A DNA stretch of 5,153 nucleotides from a virus (lineage: Duplodnaviria > Heunggongvirae > Uroviricota > Caudoviricetes), in IMG/VR virus record IMGVR_UViG_2690316028_000001, positions 1 to 5,153 of that record, one strand, 5' to 3'. Positions 848 through 5,073 of the stretch are shown here, piece by piece. The notes under the pieces are model-generated. The model was not told where the DNA came from. It was given only the letters and a program-made list of their open reading frames with translations, and ran no database searches. The first letter of the stretch is position 1. Every line of letters begins with the position of its first letter. The translations under genes were made by a program, and so were the position numbers.

Positions 848-1285
848 ATGAAACAGCCTGTTTTCTACCTCCGCGACGAACGCGTTCGCGATAACCTCAT
901 CGACTACATCAGGAAGCTGCCTGTTAACGACGCTCTGCCGCTCGTGGTGAAGTTTTCTGAGGCTGACCGCACTCTCGCCCAAAACGACCTCTTCCACGCT
1001 CTCTGTGGCGATACAGCGAAGCAATTGCAATGGGCTGGCAAGTCGCGCGACCTCGCTTCATGGAAAGTCCTGTATGTCTCAGGCCATGCCATTGCCACCG
1101 GTAAGCCTGGTGAAGTGGTGCCGGGTCTGGAAGGGGAGTTCTGCGCCATCCGGGAAAGCACTGCGAAGATGGGCATCCGTCGCATGACCAGTCTCATCGA
1201 ATACAGCCAGGCATTTGCTGTGCAAAACGGCGTGCAACTCCGTGAAGTTCGCTACTCAGGTGATTACTTCGGGAGGGTTGCGTAA
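848..1285 (+). CDS. ninB: NinB (Orf-family recombination mediator), 145 aa
   Basis: Resembles lambda NinB in length and sequence pattern (e.g. LAQNDLFHALCGD...QWAGK...ASWK versus lambda LDQNRKLWACLGD...EWHGR...ESWK, from memory). GGAGGTG at 837-843 sits a few nt before ATG 848. The ORF-track start at 800 has no RBS and adds a non-homologous extension. Confidence 0.85.
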   Translation: MKQPVFYLRDERVRDNLIDYIRKLPVNDALPLVVKFSEADRTLAQNDLFHALCGDTAKQLQWAGKSRDLASWKVLYVSGHAIATGKPGEVVPGLEGEFCAIRESTAKMGIRRMTSLIEYSQAFAVQNGVQLREVRYSGDYFGRVA

Positions 1286-1455
1286 TGGCTAGCCCTCTCG
1301 CTCGCATCATCACCAACGAAATCTACCGGGTCCGGACACGCACTAAGCGCAAGCCTGAACTCAAGCCATCCGAAATCCCATCACTGCTCGGCTACACCGC
1401 GCGACTGACCCAGGTGAAATGGGATCGCCTGAAAGCGCGGAGGTCACATGGCTGA
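1285..1455 (+). CDS. ninE: NinE-like small basic protein, 56 aa
   Basis: Not in the ORF track (under 60 aa). ATG 1285-1287 overlaps the ninB stop (TAATG). Translation [56 protein letters not shown] is basic with a W-D/I-R-(W/L) motif, like lambda NinE (about 60 aa). Confidence 0.65.
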   Translation: MASPLARIITNEIYRVRTRTKRKPELKPSEIPSLLGYTARLTQVKWDRLKARRSHG

Positions 1456-1738
1456 TTTGAGAAAAGCAGCGCGTGGTCGGGAATGCCAGGTAAGAATCCC
1501 TGGCGTATGTAATGGCAATCCTGAAACGTCTGTACTGGCACATATCCGGCTGGCTGGATTGTGCGGCACCGGTATTAAACCGCCAGACCTTATTGCCACC
1601 ATTGCATGCTCTGCCTGTCACGACGAGATCGACCGCCGTACACATTTTGTCGATGCTGAGTATGCTAAAGAATGCGCGCTGGAAGGTATGGCGAGAACGC
1701 AGGTTATCTGGCTGAAAGAGGGGGTAATCAAGGCATGA
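1448..1738 (+). CDS. ybcO: DUF1364 / YbcO-like Cys/His-rich protein (putative His-Me finger nuclease), 96 aa
   Basis: GGAGG at 1439-1443 four nt before ATG 1448; overlaps the ninE 3' end by 8 nt. Cys/His-rich ([12 protein letters not shown]...[11 protein letters not shown]...CSACHDEID). Sits between ninE and rusA as ybcO does in DLP12. Confidence 0.7.
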
Positions 1739-2097
1739 ATACTTACAACATCACATTGCCCTGGCCGCCGAGCAATAACCGCTACTACCGCCATAATCGC
1801 AGGCGCACGCACATCAGCACAGAGGGGCAGGCGTACCGCGACAGTGTCGCCAGAATCATCAAAGACTCAATGCTGGATATCGGCCTGGCTACACCCGTGA
1901 AAATACGCATTGAGTGCCATATGCCGGATCGCCGCCGCCGCGACCTGGACAATCTGCAAAAGGCCGCGTTCGACGCCCTGACGAAATCCGGGTTCTGGCT
2001 CGATGACCAACAAGTCGACTACTACAGCGTGAAGAGAATGCCGGTCGTCAAAGGCGGCAGACTTGAACTGACCATTACTGAACTTGAGTCCGCATGA
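1735..2097 (+). CDS. rusA: RusA Holliday-junction resolvase, 120 aa
   Basis: N-terminus [28 protein letters not shown]... and the core ...[38 protein letters not shown]...GGRLELTI match my recollection of E. coli RusA (120 aa). ATG 1735 overlaps the ybcO-like stop (ATGA). The ORF-track start at 1672 adds an unsupported 21-aa extension. Confidence 0.9.
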
Positions 2098-2234
2098 CAT
2101 TCGAATCCTACTTTGCTGATCATCTTCGTCTGCGATGGACTCGGTTACGCATCTATCGTCACCCGGGTTCATTTGCTACGGACTACCGAATACTGAAGAA
2201 TTACGTGAAAACTTATGCTGGAGAAGCGCTATGA
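2094..2234 (+). CDS. ylcG: Small basic protein, 46 aa, YlcG-like (DLP12 rusA-Q intergenic ORF)
   Basis: Not in the ORF track. ATG 2094 overlaps the rusA stop (ATGA) and its TGA at 2232-2234 overlaps the Q ATG (ATGA). Translation [46 protein letters not shown]. Same size and position as DLP12 ylcG. Confidence 0.5.
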
Positions 2235-3061
2235 ACCTTGAAAACACAGTGAAATACCACTTCGCAAAATCCACGCTGATTAGCGATTCTCCGCGCGCTA
2301 CCGCCTCCGATTCACTGACCGGTACCGACATCATGGCGGCAATAGGCATGACTCAGGAACGCGCTGCTATGGGGTACAGTGCTTTCCTCGGCAAGATGGG
2401 CATAAGCAATAACGACCGGGATCGGGCTATCGGACTGCTGGCTGAGTACGCGATGACCAAATGTGACAAGGTTGCCGCGCTGCGTAAGTTGGATTTCGGG
2501 GTTAAGCCTCAGGTGATGTACCAGTTGGCCACCTTCGCATTTGAGGATTATTCCCGCAGCGCAGCCAGTGTAAAACGGTGCGATTGCTGCAACGGTGAGG
2601 GCTTTATTGATGCTGAGGTATTCAGTATGAAAACCAATACGCCGGCACATGCAAAAGAAATCATTAAGGCATCAAAAGCGTTTGGTTTGAAGGTGATACC
2701 TTCGCAGCACCAAAACAGGCGTGAGGTAAAAGAGATAACGCGCGTTCTCTGTCCTCAGTGCAAAGGGAAAAAAGCCATCAGTTGCGCATGTAGTGATTGC
2801 CGTGGCCGTGGGAAAGCGGTGAATCAGAAGGAAACGAAGCAGCAAGGCGTTCCAGTATTCAGCACCTGCAAGCGCTGTGGCGGTCGCGGATATGAGCGCA
2901 TCCCGTCAACTGAGGCCCACGCAGCTGTTTGCCAGATTACGGATGTAATCAGCCTGGATACGTGGAAGAAGTCCGTTAAACCGTTCTATGATCAGCTGAT
3001 TACGAAATTCGATATTGAAGAGGCATGGGCAGAAAACCAACTGAAACAAATAACACGATAA
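2231..3061 (+). CDS. Q: Late-gene antitermination protein Q (long Q family, Cys-rich zinc-finger region), 276 aa
   Basis: N-terminus [33 protein letters not shown]... resembles enterobacterial prophage Q proteins as I recall them. GGAG at 2220-2223 seven nt before ATG 2231. Four CxxCxG-type Cys pairs. Immediately followed by a PR'/tR'-like region and the lysis genes. The ORF-track start at 2135 has no RBS. Confidence 0.85.
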   Translation: MNLENTVKYHFAKSTLISDSPRATASDSLTGTDIMAAIGMTQERAAMGYSAFLGKMGISNNDRDRAIGLLAEYAMTKCDKVAALRKLDFGVKPQVMYQLATFAFEDYSRSAASVKRCDCCNGEGFIDAEVFSMKTNTPAHAKEIIKASKAFGLKVIPSQHQNRREVKEITRVLCPQCKGKKAISCACSDCRGRGKAVNQKETKQQGVPVFSTCKRCGGRGYERIPSTEAHAAVCQITDVISLDTWKKSVKPFYDQLITKFDIEEAWAENQLKQITR

Positions 3062-3087
3062 CGGCTATGGAAGTTAATTCCAGCTAT

Positions 3088-3125
3088 TTACTTTTCCCGA
3101 ATCTGTGTTAATTTTATCCCAACGA
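3088..3125 (+). promoter_or_regulatory. PR'-like late promoter with expected qut (Q-utilisation) site
   Basis: -35-like TTTACT at 3088-3093 and extended -10 TGtTAATTT at 3106-3114, followed by CAACGATGGGTTAATTCGCTCG, which closely resembles the lambda PR' initial transcribed/pause region as I recall it. Exact +1 not determinable here. Confidence 0.45.
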
Positions 3126-3317
3126 TGGGTTAATTCGCTCGTTGTGGTAGTGAGATAAAAAGAGGCGGCGCTTACTACCGATTCCGCCTAGTTGGTCACT
3201 TCGACGTATCGTCTGGAACTCCAACCATCGCAGGCTGAGAGGTCTGTAAAATGCAATCCCGAAACAGTTCGCAGGTAATAGTTAGAGCCTGCATAACGGT
3301 TTCGGGATTTTTTATTT
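3121..3317 (+). ncRNA. 6S-like short late leader transcript (PR' to tR')
   Basis: About 195 nt between the putative PR' start and the tR' U-tract, the length class of the lambda 6S RNA. The sequence looks near-identical to my recollection of the lambda PR'-tR' leader. Confidence 0.4.
3255..3317 (+). terminator. tR'-like intrinsic terminator (the terminator Q-modified RNAP reads through)
   Basis: Outer stem 3257-3265 with 3299-3307 (tcccgaaac / gtttcggga), inner stem gcagg 3271-3275 with cctgc 3288-3292, followed by TTTTTTATTT at 3308-3317. Confidence 0.7.
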
Positions 3318-3392
3318 GGGTCAGTCGTATAAAGGTCATTACGGAAGGCTGTTAACCTTCTTATCGTGGTTCGAGTCCACGCTGTCCCGCCA
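3318..3392 (+). tRNA. tRNA-Asn (anticodon GUU), phage-encoded
   Basis: Manual cloverleaf. Acceptor 3318-3324 with 3382-3388 (6/7 bp, one U-U mismatch), U8, D stem 3327-3330 with 3339-3342, GG in the D loop. Anticodon stem gaagg 3344-3348 with ccttc 3356-3360, loop CUGUUAA (anticodon 3351-3353). T arm cgtgg-TTCGAGT-ccacg (3365-3381), discriminator G3389, encoded CCA 3390-3392. Confidence 0.65.
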
Positions 3393-3442
3393 AATACCTA
3401 CCAGGACCATAAGAGCAAAAGCTCAACGCACTACCCTCTATT

Positions 3443-3468
3443 GCCCACCGCGCCGTGGGCTTTTTTAT
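3443..3468 (+). terminator. Intrinsic terminator downstream of the tRNA
   Basis: GC-rich stem gcccac 3443-3448 with gtgggc 3455-3460, 6-nt loop, followed by TTTTTTATT from 3461. Confidence 0.6.
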
Positions 3469-3574
3469 TGCAGGCCGCAGATATCATTTTCAGATGCCAT
3501 GTAGCAATCAGAGTCTGACGGCCTTTCCCCTACAAACACACACAGCACCATCCGGAAAATCGGAGGTGAGGCCT

Positions 3575-3898
3575 ATGATAATGCCATACAAACAAGATTT
3601 CATCGCTGCGCTACTTGCCGCCAAGGAGCAGGGTATTGGTGCAATGCTGGCTTTTATCATGGCGTATCTGCGTGGTCGCTATAACGGCGGCGCGGTAACA
3701 AAAACGCTAATTGATGCGCTGATGTGCGCGATGATTGCCTGGTTCGTTCGTGACCTTCTGGACTTTATCGGCCTGAGCAGCAACCTCGCCTACATAGCCA
3801 GCGTCTTTATTGGATACATCGGCACCGATTCGATCGGCAATCTTATTAAAAAACTTGCAGCAAAAAAGGCGGGAGTTGACGATGCAAACCAGTCCTGA
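3575..3898 (+). CDS. S: Class I holin, lambda S family, 107 aa
   Basis: Translation [39 protein letters not shown]...[22 protein letters not shown] is very close to my recollection of lambda S107 ([39 protein letters not shown]...). Dual in-frame starts ATG 3575 and ATG 3581 (Met1-Ile2-Met3); GGAGGTGAGG at 3562-3571. Confidence 0.9.
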
Positions 3899-4331
3899 CG
3901 GAATTGCTCTGATAAAAAAATTTGAAGGTTGTCGGCTGACTGCTTACCCCGACCCCGGAACGGGAGATGCGCCGTGGACCATCGGCTATGGCTGGACCCA
4001 TCCGGTTGACGGAAAGCCAGTAAAGCGCGGTATGACTATCGACCAGCAAACCGCTGACAGGCTTCTGAAAACAGGGCTTGTTGGTTATGAGAATGACGTG
4101 CTGAAAGTTGTCAGGGTGAAGCTGACACAAGGCCAGTTCGACGCACTGGTGTCGTTCGCTTACAACGTTGGGTCGCGTGCTCTTTCCACATCTACACTGC
4201 TGAAAAAGCTGAATGCTGGCGATATAAAAGGCGCGGCAGATGAATTTCTGCGCTGGAATAAATCAGGCGGAAAGGTGATGCCGGGGCTCACGAATCGCCG
4301 CAAGGCAGAGCGAGCTCTGTTCCTGTCATGA
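3882..4331 (+). CDS. Endolysin, GH24 phage lysozyme (P22 gp19-like), 149 aa
   Basis: N-terminus [24 protein letters not shown]...TIGYGWT and C-terminus ...[11 protein letters not shown] resemble P22 gp19 lysozyme (recalled), with the T4-lysozyme-type Glu-8aa-Asp...Thr catalytic arrangement. No signal or SAR sequence. GGGAG at 3871-3875 before ATG 3882; 17-nt overlap with the holin 3' end. Confidence 0.9.
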
Positions 4332-4801
4332 TTAGCGCACTGGTTAAGCGTTACTGGCTGCAGTTGCTGGTGCTGGCGTTAATCGGCGCACTGGCTTTCT
4401 TCGTGAACCACTACCGCGACAACGCCATCACCTACAAAGACCAGCGCGACAAAGCCACCAAAAGTCTCCGCCTGGCTAACGACACCATCAAAGACATGCA
4501 GACCCGTCAGCGCGATGTCGCTGCACTGGATGCCAAATACACGAAGGAATTGTCCGATGCTAAAAAGACCATTAACGATTTGCGTCGTGATGTCGATTCT
4601 GGCGCTAAACGGCTGCGCATCGCTGCAACCTGCCCTGGAGTGCCAAAAGCCACCTCCTCCACCGGCGTGGATGATGCAGGAGCCCCCGAACTTACTCCAG
4701 ACGCTCGACGGAATTATTTCGATCACCGGGACGGAATCGCAACCGCTGACAAAATGATTCGCGGCATGCAGGACTACATCAAAGAGCAGTGTCTTAAGTG
4801 A
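4328..4801 (+). CDS. Rz: Rz i-spanin (inner-membrane spanin subunit), 157 aa
   Basis: ATG 4328 overlaps the lysozyme stop (ATGA). Hydrophobic N-terminal segment ([17 protein letters not shown]) followed by a charged, coiled-coil-like periplasmic domain. Position and architecture are typical of Rz. Confidence 0.85.
4557..4757 (+). CDS. Rz1: Rz1 o-spanin (outer-membrane lipoprotein) embedded in the +1 frame of Rz, 66 aa
   Basis: [22 protein letters not shown] gives a lipoprotein signal with lipobox LNGC, followed by the proline-rich [13 protein letters not shown] (lambda Rz1 has [14 protein letters not shown] as recalled). AAGGA at 4543-4547 before ATG 4557. The ORF-track start at 4515 is upstream of the signal peptide and less likely. 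Confidence 0.8.
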
Positions 4802-4820
4802 TTCGTCACCCAAATAACAG

Positions 4821-4848
4821 AGCCTGACTTCGGTCGGGCTTTTTTATT
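4821..4848 (+). terminator. Intrinsic terminator after the lysis cassette
   Basis: Stem agcctgac 4821-4828 with gtcgggct 4833-4840 (8 bp, one U-G), TTCG tetraloop, then TTTTTTATT. Confidence 0.7.
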
Positions 4849-4872: not shown

Positions 4873-5073
4873 ATGTTAACAGTAAAAGTAATGTCGCCAG
4901 GTGGCGGTGAAGAGATTCATTGCGGGTTGAGTGTAGGGTTCAATCCGGGGCAGCAGAGCATCGCGGTATCGGGAATGGACAAAAATGTATTCCTGAAACC
5001 TGGCGAGGTCGCCTACGTGATGAACCAGAACGGGAAGACGGTATCTCGTTACGAGCATAATGACCGCCAGTAG
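4873..5073 (+). CDS. Hypothetical small protein, 66 aa, function unknown
   Basis: Strong RBS AGGAG at 4861-4865 seven nt before ATG 4873. Gly-rich soluble product (MLTVKVMSPGGGEEIHCGLSVGFNPGQQ...). No family recognised. Lies between the spanins and what would be the packaging genes. Confidence 0.45.
   Translation: MLTVKVMSPGGGEEIHCGLSVGFNPGQQSIAVSGMDKNVFLKPGEVAYVMNQNGKTVSRYEHNDRQ

Follow-up and report, generated by a model that had tools for sequence, protein, structure and literature searches.

The DNA analysed here (the window, 5153 nucleotides) carries a late antitermination cassette of the Q-lambda family in which the leader has been exchanged by recombination and the Q-specific half of the qut site came together with Q, a reading to which we give a probability of about 85%. 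The left module, made up of the Q gene, the late promoter and the Q-binding region belonging to it, and the transcript start, would derive from an HK225/ES8-like phage. The right module, consisting of the 6S leader from about +15, tR' and a tRNA-Asn, would derive from an HK446/lambda-like phage, and the joint would lie inside CCCAACGATGGGTTAAT, the 17-bp pause-element stretch common to both parents. Since the Q-specific part of qut would have travelled with Q, no mismatch between Q and qut is expected.

The window corresponds to all 5153 bases of contig LLYK01000039.1 (E. coli draft assembly GCA_001484375.1) and represents a lambdoid nin–Q–lysis region, with the features collected in Table 1. 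All of the cassette genes, checked with Pfam, were intact. The Q gene (2231-3061) lies upstream of the leader, and not downstream of it as had been stated, and the non-coding stretch of 514 bp between Q and the holin gene houses the promoter/leader joint. Holin S, lysozyme and Rz (3575-4801) are the late lysis genes, with a predicted dependence on Q. The two outer ORFs, at 44-661 (205 aa) and 4873-5073 (66 aa), had no Pfam family. A sub-threshold Rfam match to isrJ at 4773-4843 (27 bits, gathering score 37), which overlaps a terminator-like sequence after Rz, is probably due to chance.

Table 1. Features of the window (coordinates are those of the window; positions with a sign are relative to the transcription start)
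Feature	Coordinates	Strand	Basis or remark
NinB	848-1285		
NinE-like ORF	1285-1455		
YbcO	1448-1738		
RusA	1735-2097		
YlcG	2094-2234		
Q antiterminator gene	2231-3061	+	276 aa; PF03589
Late promoter, long-Q type (predicted)	3087-3114	+	Position relative to lambda PR' and conservation
-35 TTTACT (predicted)	3087-3092	+	Inferred from position relative to lambda PR'
Spacer, 16 nt, predicted QBE zone	3093-3108	+	TTTCCCGAATCTGTGT
Extended -10, TGn-TAATTT (predicted)	3106-3114	+	TAATTT at 3109-3114 (-12 to -7)
Crossover interval CCCAACGATGGGTTAAT	3118-3134 (-3 to +14)	+	17 bp, the same in both parent types
Transcription start, +1 (predicted)	3121	+	Inferred relative to lambda
Sigma-dependent pause element AACGAT (+1 to +6), then GGG	3121-3129	+	Same as lambda
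6S leader transcript, lambda/HK446-type (+1 to +193)	3121-3313	+	190/193 identical to lambda
tR' intrinsic terminator	3256-3313	+	Hairpin 3256-3307, U-run 3308-3313; no mismatch to lambda after +127
tRNA-Asn (GTT)	3318-3392	+	ARAGORN; Rfam tRNA, 55 bits
Second terminator-like hairpin GCCCACCGCGCCGTGGGC with T-run	3443-3467	+	Terminator scan; between tRNA and holin gene
Holin S	3575-3898	+	Pfam PF05106
Lysozyme	3882-4331	+	Pfam PF00959
Rz	4328-4801	+	Pfam PF03245

Sequence analysis showed that the Q protein of the window is a member of the Q-lambda family and not a foreign type. The protein, which is identical to WP_060617188.1, recorded as 'antitermination protein [Escherichia coli]', matched PF03589 in two stretches with an E value of 2.1e-44 and 150 bits (cut-off 26.7), and lambda Q gave 193 bits in the same scan. 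PF03589 has been assigned to Q-lambda, PF06530 to Q21 and PF06323 to Q82 (Yin et al., PMC9388147), and neither PF06530 nor PF06323 matched the window Q in the Pfam scan even at E<=10. In the phmmer search of PDB sequences, the matches of the window Q were Q-lambda chains only, and no Q21 chain was found among them. Membership in the 82 or 21 family was ruled out by the Pfam and PDB searches. It had been noticed earlier that this Q is longer than lambda Q and Cys-rich, and both points held (276 aa versus 207 aa; four invariant CxxC pairs). The proposed comparison with the lambda, 21 and 82 proteins also bore out the difference from lambda Q, the BLASTP identity being 50% before and 37% after an insertion of 71 residues, but it left the protein inside the Q-lambda family.

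The insertion comprises aa 114-184 (window 2570-2782) and is located exactly at the junction of body and arm. According to the phmmer alignments, aa 1-113 of the window Q correspond without gaps to residues 1-113 of lambda Q, and aa 185-276 correspond to residues 116-207; the homologous N-terminal part covers lambda residues 1-60, the RNA-exit-channel torus, and the first half of the body. The Q-lambda arm, lambda residues 114-152, is a zinc ribbon (PMC9388147). The four CxxC pairs of the window Q are C117/C120, C174/C177, C187/C190 and C213/C216, and their eight Cys residues were invariant across 51 homologues. C187, C190, C213 and C216 align with C118, C121, C144 and C147 of the lambda zinc ribbon, and the pairs C117/C120 and C174/C177, which are located on the insertion, are extra in comparison with lambda Q. 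An AlphaFold (AF2) model of the window Q was of moderate quality (mean pLDDT 66). The top eight Foldseek matches were all Q-lambda chains (7ubn, 7ubm, 7ubk, 7ubj, 4mo1 and 7ubl) with E values from 9e-10 to 1e-4, and Q-lambda structures were the only significant PDB matches of the model, which fits a helical body with an HTH fold. In the model, the insertion forms a long beta-hairpin that ends in a helical tip and lies between the two extra knuckles (pLDDT about 63-80), a fold suggestive of another zinc ribbon placed in tandem with the canonical arm of Q-lambda.

The closest relatives of the window Q are likewise long. It shared 79% amino acid identity with the Q of HK225, annotated as Qin-like, and up to 99% with those of ES8 and L177. 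Prophages of Citrobacter, Enterobacter, Escherichia, Kluyvera, Leclercia and their relatives commonly encode a long Q of this kind, on which a literature search (Qin-type long Q, QuuQ/YdfT) gave no relevant study.

For Q to load, two elements are required in cis: a QBE between the -35 and -10 elements and, within the first transcribed bases, a pause element resembling a -10 (PMC4914094, PMC9388147). The original prediction held the whole PR'/qut region to be conserved with lambda, and this was true of the pause-element half of qut, the leader and tR' but not of the half containing the promoter and the Q-binding zone: lambda is matched at just 35 of 63 aligned positions across the 59 bases of 3062-3120, where the -35, the spacer and the -10 are located. 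The lambda -35/-10 spacer TATTGAATAAAATTGGG gave no match in the window even with up to three mismatches allowed. The stretch 3062-3134, running from the stop codon of Q to +14, was instead 100% identical to HK225. Because a simple sigma-70 scan missed the promoter, its assignment rests on position relative to lambda PR' and on conservation; the hexamers match the consensus at 4/6 and 3/6 positions, and tR', whose stem is bulged, was not called by the simple terminator scan either.

Conservation of this region was evident among the long-Q loci. Six reference loci, HK225 and five E. coli prophages with Q genes 76-99% identical in DNA to that of the window, all have GCTATTTACTTTTCCCGAATCTGTGTTAATTT followed by AACGATGGGTTA. 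In 51 distinct long-Q promoters drawn from IMG/VR and the reference loci, CTATTTACTTTTCCCGAATCTGTG-n-TAATTT was invariant or nearly so, as were the positions from -38 to -7 except for -13, which was free as expected of a TGn extended -10; positions -6 to -2 and those upstream of -38 were variable, and ACGATGG (+2 to +8) was invariant. On these grounds the -35/-10 region of the window is the predicted cognate sequence of the long-Q type itself, to which Q is predicted to bind, and the QBE of the window appears to differ from that of lambda, as judged from the whole -35/-10 spacer being different.

A further difference from lambda was found just upstream of the pause element, where the window has TTATCC at -9 to -4 in place of the -35-like TTGACT. 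In the Q-loading complex, sigma region 4 is taken to sit on the TTGACT that adjoins the lambda pause element. TTGAC is retained by nearly all lambda-Q loci, whereas the corresponding long-Q segment (3115-3120 in the window; loci L017-L096) is variable, and the long-Q promoters conserve instead the TG of the extended -10 at -15/-14. As the long-Q promoters conserve no -35-like site for sigma region 4 at that place, Q loading might differ somewhat, and the putative extra zinc ribbon might substitute for a contact during loading of the long Q. Among the features specific to the lambda qut, AACGAT and the pause-site sequence were present in the window, while the lambda QBE spacer and the TTGACT seat were absent; the cassette is thus a member of the Q-lambda system without a lambda-specific qut.

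From the transcript start onwards, the similarity to lambda was close to complete. The claim that the sequence resembles the lambda late leader from CAACGATGGG (3120/3121) through tR' was fully borne out, and in the alignment with lambda, the kind of check that had been named, the leader was lambda-like from 3121, with the 35/63 agreement upstream of it. In the ungapped comparison with NC_001416 starting at AACGATGGG (window 3121, lambda 44587), only 3 of 195 positions over 3121-3315 differed. The mismatches fall at +37, +116 and +127, and all three are common to HK446; the ungapped count gave no mismatch in AACGAT, in the +16/+17 pause region or in the tR' hairpin, and +1 to +36 are the same as in lambda. 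In a megablast search of 3062-3317 against 50,697 phage records, lambda (E = 7e-94) and about 30 relatives were matched, with matches starting at query base 39-49, and HK225 and mEp237 matched the first 73 query bases only, HK225 at 100%. The leader RNA had a predicted folding z score of -3.5, with the tR' hairpin appearing in both the MFE and centroid folds. No Rfam family was found for the leader, the tRNA and the sub-threshold isrJ being the only Rfam matches in the window.

The pause element AACGATGG is native to both the lambda-type and the long-type Q cassettes. At lambda PR', AACGAT serves as a pause element resembling a -10, and the polymerase pauses at +16/+17 (PMC9191641, PMC4914094), which corresponds to 3136/3137 of the window; the positions +15 to +21 around the pause site tune the pause lifetime (PMC9191641), and termination occurs at +193 (PMC4914094). 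As a side observation, position 3157 (+37) is A in the window and in HK446 and G in lambda, by which the ATG of the annotated lambda orf-64 (NC_001416 44621-44815) is lost. The fetched loci with a lambda-type leader divided into 21 with G and 27 with A at this position; given this lack of conservation of its start codon, orf-64 is unlikely to be a gene.

Alignments with the two parent types, HK225/ES8/L177 on the left and HK446/lambda on the right, located the joint. ES8, L177 and the loci with 95-99% identical Q proteins match the window as far as +14 and depart from it at +15 (G), and all of these closest Q relatives carry their own native short leader. HK446, the closest relative on the right, agrees from -3 through the tRNA-Asn to 3396 and has GAC at -6 to -4 where the window has ATC. 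The crossover therefore falls within 3118-3134, where both parents are the same because the pause element is functionally constrained. Mosaic exchange of this kind, at the borders of modules, is a textbook trait of lambdoid phages. The exact Q protein of the window was found by exact-protein look-up on seven more contigs, which come from different samples in ENA and Logan; all of them carry the junction and are identical to the window over every covered part of the Q-to-holin stretch. Their flanks are mosaic, with one contig (L011) being wholly different upstream of about 750 and another (L009) differing downstream of about 4400, so that the hybrid segment stands in at least three flanking backgrounds. 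Q together with a lambda-type leader in one match was found neither in 5426 complete E. coli genomes nor among the 50,697 phage records, and exact-pattern scans with a 45-mer and a 27-mer of the junction gave no match in GTDB species representatives or IMG/VR. The joint is a real and ordinary mosaic joint, and the combination is rare in the collections searched; the seven contigs and the window may descend from a single recombination event, the most probable source being one rare recombinant lineage.

In addition to the individual alignments, a survey of IMG/VR showed how the parts of the cassette are inherited. It comprised 80 loci with relatives of the window Q (78-100% amino acid identity) and 80 loci with a lambda-type Q, the latter sample being narrow in that all 80 were about 100% identical to lambda Q. 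In this sample the promoter type followed the Q type in all 160 loci: the TTTACTTTTCCCGAATCTGTG promoter occurred in 80/80 long-Q loci and 0/80 lambda-Q loci, and the TTGACTT-TTGAATAA-TTGGGTAAATT promoter occurred in 80/80 lambda-Q loci. Leader types varied inside each Q group, and some were common to both. The lambda-Q loci contained 37 leaders of the lambda 6S type, 33 short leaders with GGATAAATGCAC, 4 short leaders of the HK225 type and 6 others; the long-Q loci contained 64 of the HK225-type short leader, 15 with GGGCATTG, 1 other and no lambda 6S leader. The native short leader of the six long-Q reference loci reads GCCTTCGTTT-AAGCCCCGCGG-ATAACA-CCGTGGGGC-TTTT, with the terminator at roughly +25 to +55. 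Reciprocal hybrids were also observed, with four loci (L119, L123, L128 and L136) having a lambda-type Q and promoter joined at the pause element to an HK225-type short leader and terminator. Since several leader types were seen with either Q type, the cassette evidently tolerates an exchange of leaders.

The tRNA-Asn begins 5 nt after the U-run of tR' and, given this placement, should be expressed only upon read-through by Q. It is part of the HK446-like patch, in which homology to HK446 stops at 3396, and HK446 has the same tRNA-Asn at the same place together with a tRNA-Thr. Within the 3' half of the tRNA-Asn there is a second joint, from where the Citrobacter phage Omnitron shares 3347-4632 at 92% identity, including the hairpin at 3443-3467. 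In Omnitron, a terminator is directly followed by a tRNA-Asn and then by the same downstream spacer, and the Q position is occupied by an unrelated protein. The ORF at that position (L184 1111-1854, 247 aa), which precedes a promoter, the terminator and the tRNA-Asn, had no Pfam match even at E<=10 and may stand for a protein that takes the place of Q without belonging to any of the three described Q families.

A working mechanism is expected by analogy with the lambda paradigm. RNA polymerase would initiate constitutively at 3121, sigma70 would re-bind AACGAT, and the complex would pause at about +16/+17. The long Q would bind its own element, located between the -35 and the -10, and from there load onto the paused complex, and the modified polymerase would pass tR' and the second terminator into the tRNA-Asn and the lysis genes. 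Without Q, transcription would stop at tR' (3313), giving a lambda-like 6S RNA. Polymerase modified by Q passes terminators processively and without terminator specificity, as in the read-through of lambda tR' with 82Q on hybrid templates (PMC4914094). Since the swap replaced +15 to +21, the zone that tunes the pause lifetime at lambda PR', the efficiency of Q loading could differ quantitatively from that of the native arrangement.

The concern implied by the original observation is that a non-lambda Q stands on a lambda qut and would either cross-recognise a lambda site or fail on it, and it is favoured by the lambda-like pause-element half of qut and the lambda-like leader as a whole. It was not upheld, since the -35/-10 region is that of HK225 at 100%, the pause element is native to both Q types and read-through by Q-modified polymerase has no terminator specificity; with a spacer that is not lambda-like (35/63; no match with up to three mismatches) but is conserved as the cognate sequence of the long-Q type, a true mismatch of Q and qut is highly improbable. 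An artefact of assembly, in which two prophages were misjoined at the common 17-bp pause element, might be suspected from the window being a short draft contig of 5153 bp and from the absence of the junction from the 5426 E. coli genomes, the 50,697 phage records, the GTDB representatives and IMG/VR. Such a chimera is scarcely credible, since the same junction occurs on the seven other contigs, which differ in sample and assembler (ENA and Logan) and include one of 15 kb, with differing flanks upstream of about 750 or downstream of about 4400, and a 17-bp repeat is far below the k-mer and read lengths behind such misjoins.

A real recombinant which is functionally impaired or altered in Q loading or late timing, perhaps in a decaying prophage, is unlikely. 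With the native leader of +15 to +55 replaced, the terminator moved from about +55 to +193 and the pause-site sequence changed, in a region (+14 to +20) that tunes the pause lifetime at lambda PR' (PMC9191641). Such a combination is also rare (0/80 IMG/VR long-Q loci and 0/19 E. coli genomes matching at least 80% of a query of the long Q and promoter), and the native leader is retained in the nearest relatives of this Q. These points are opposed by the intact state of all the cassette genes, by the unchanged segment in at least three flanking backgrounds, which suggests spread as a working unit by further recombination, and by the reciprocal hybrid and the several leader types per Q type. The preferred reading remains a leader exchange that left Q with its own part of qut.

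Beyond this reading, the long Q proteins of 271-277 aa with two arms may form their own specificity class within the Q-lambda family, marked by a conserved element of their own, TTTCCCGAATCTGTG, within the promoter. The 6S leader of lambda, accompanied in the window by the tRNA-Asn, may be a discrete and highly conserved cassette that hops between Q modules via the pause element. Taken together, an unstudied specificity class of two-arm Q and a hopping 6S cassette form a tentative proposal that we consider rather doubtful as a whole. Terminated PR' transcripts such as 6S RNA have been suggested to be selected small RNAs, with StxS as a comparison by which regulation has also been proposed for lambda 6S RNA (PMC7547250), and a hopping 6S cassette, if true, would fit this suggestion.

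Our results removed the false alarm of a Q on a foreign qut, as Q is paired with its own predicted site. The current understanding of Q antitermination is unchanged, and the cassette is a natural example of exchangeable parts, in which Q and its promoter-embedded site are co-inherited and the leader, terminator and tRNA are swapped in both directions. The long Q with an apparent double zinc ribbon and its distinct promoter element are a possible comparison partner for lambda Q and the specificity of the QBE.

Among known systems, the lambda cassette (NC_001416 43886-44780) resembles that of the window in having a PF03589 Q, the same gene order, the pause element AACGATGGGTTAAT, a leader identical at 190/193 positions including tR' and a -10 hexamer equally far from +1. 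It differs in the -35 hexamer, the spacer and the positions -6 to -1, with TTGACT in lambda and TTATCC in the window; the spacer is 17 nt in lambda and 16 nt in the window, which has a TG extended -10, and the window has in addition the 71-aa insertion in Q and the tRNA-Asn after tR'. HK225 (NC_019717), mEp237 and prophages of E. coli, Citrobacter and Enterobacter likewise encode the long 'Qin-like' Q (271-277 aa), but the HK225-type loci have the short leader GCCTTCGTTTCAAGCCCCGCGG-ATAACA-CCGTGGGGCTTTT with a terminator at about +25 to +55, and neither the 193-nt leader nor the tRNA. HK446 (NC_019714) is 98.6% identical over 3104-3396, including the three non-lambda variants and the tRNA-Asn, but has a lambda-type Q, a lambda-type promoter and the additional tRNA-Thr. 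The Q21 and Q82 families have no sequence relationship to the window Q, but share with this cassette the common logic of a QBE, a sigma-dependent pause and terminator read-through (PMC9388147, PMC4914094).
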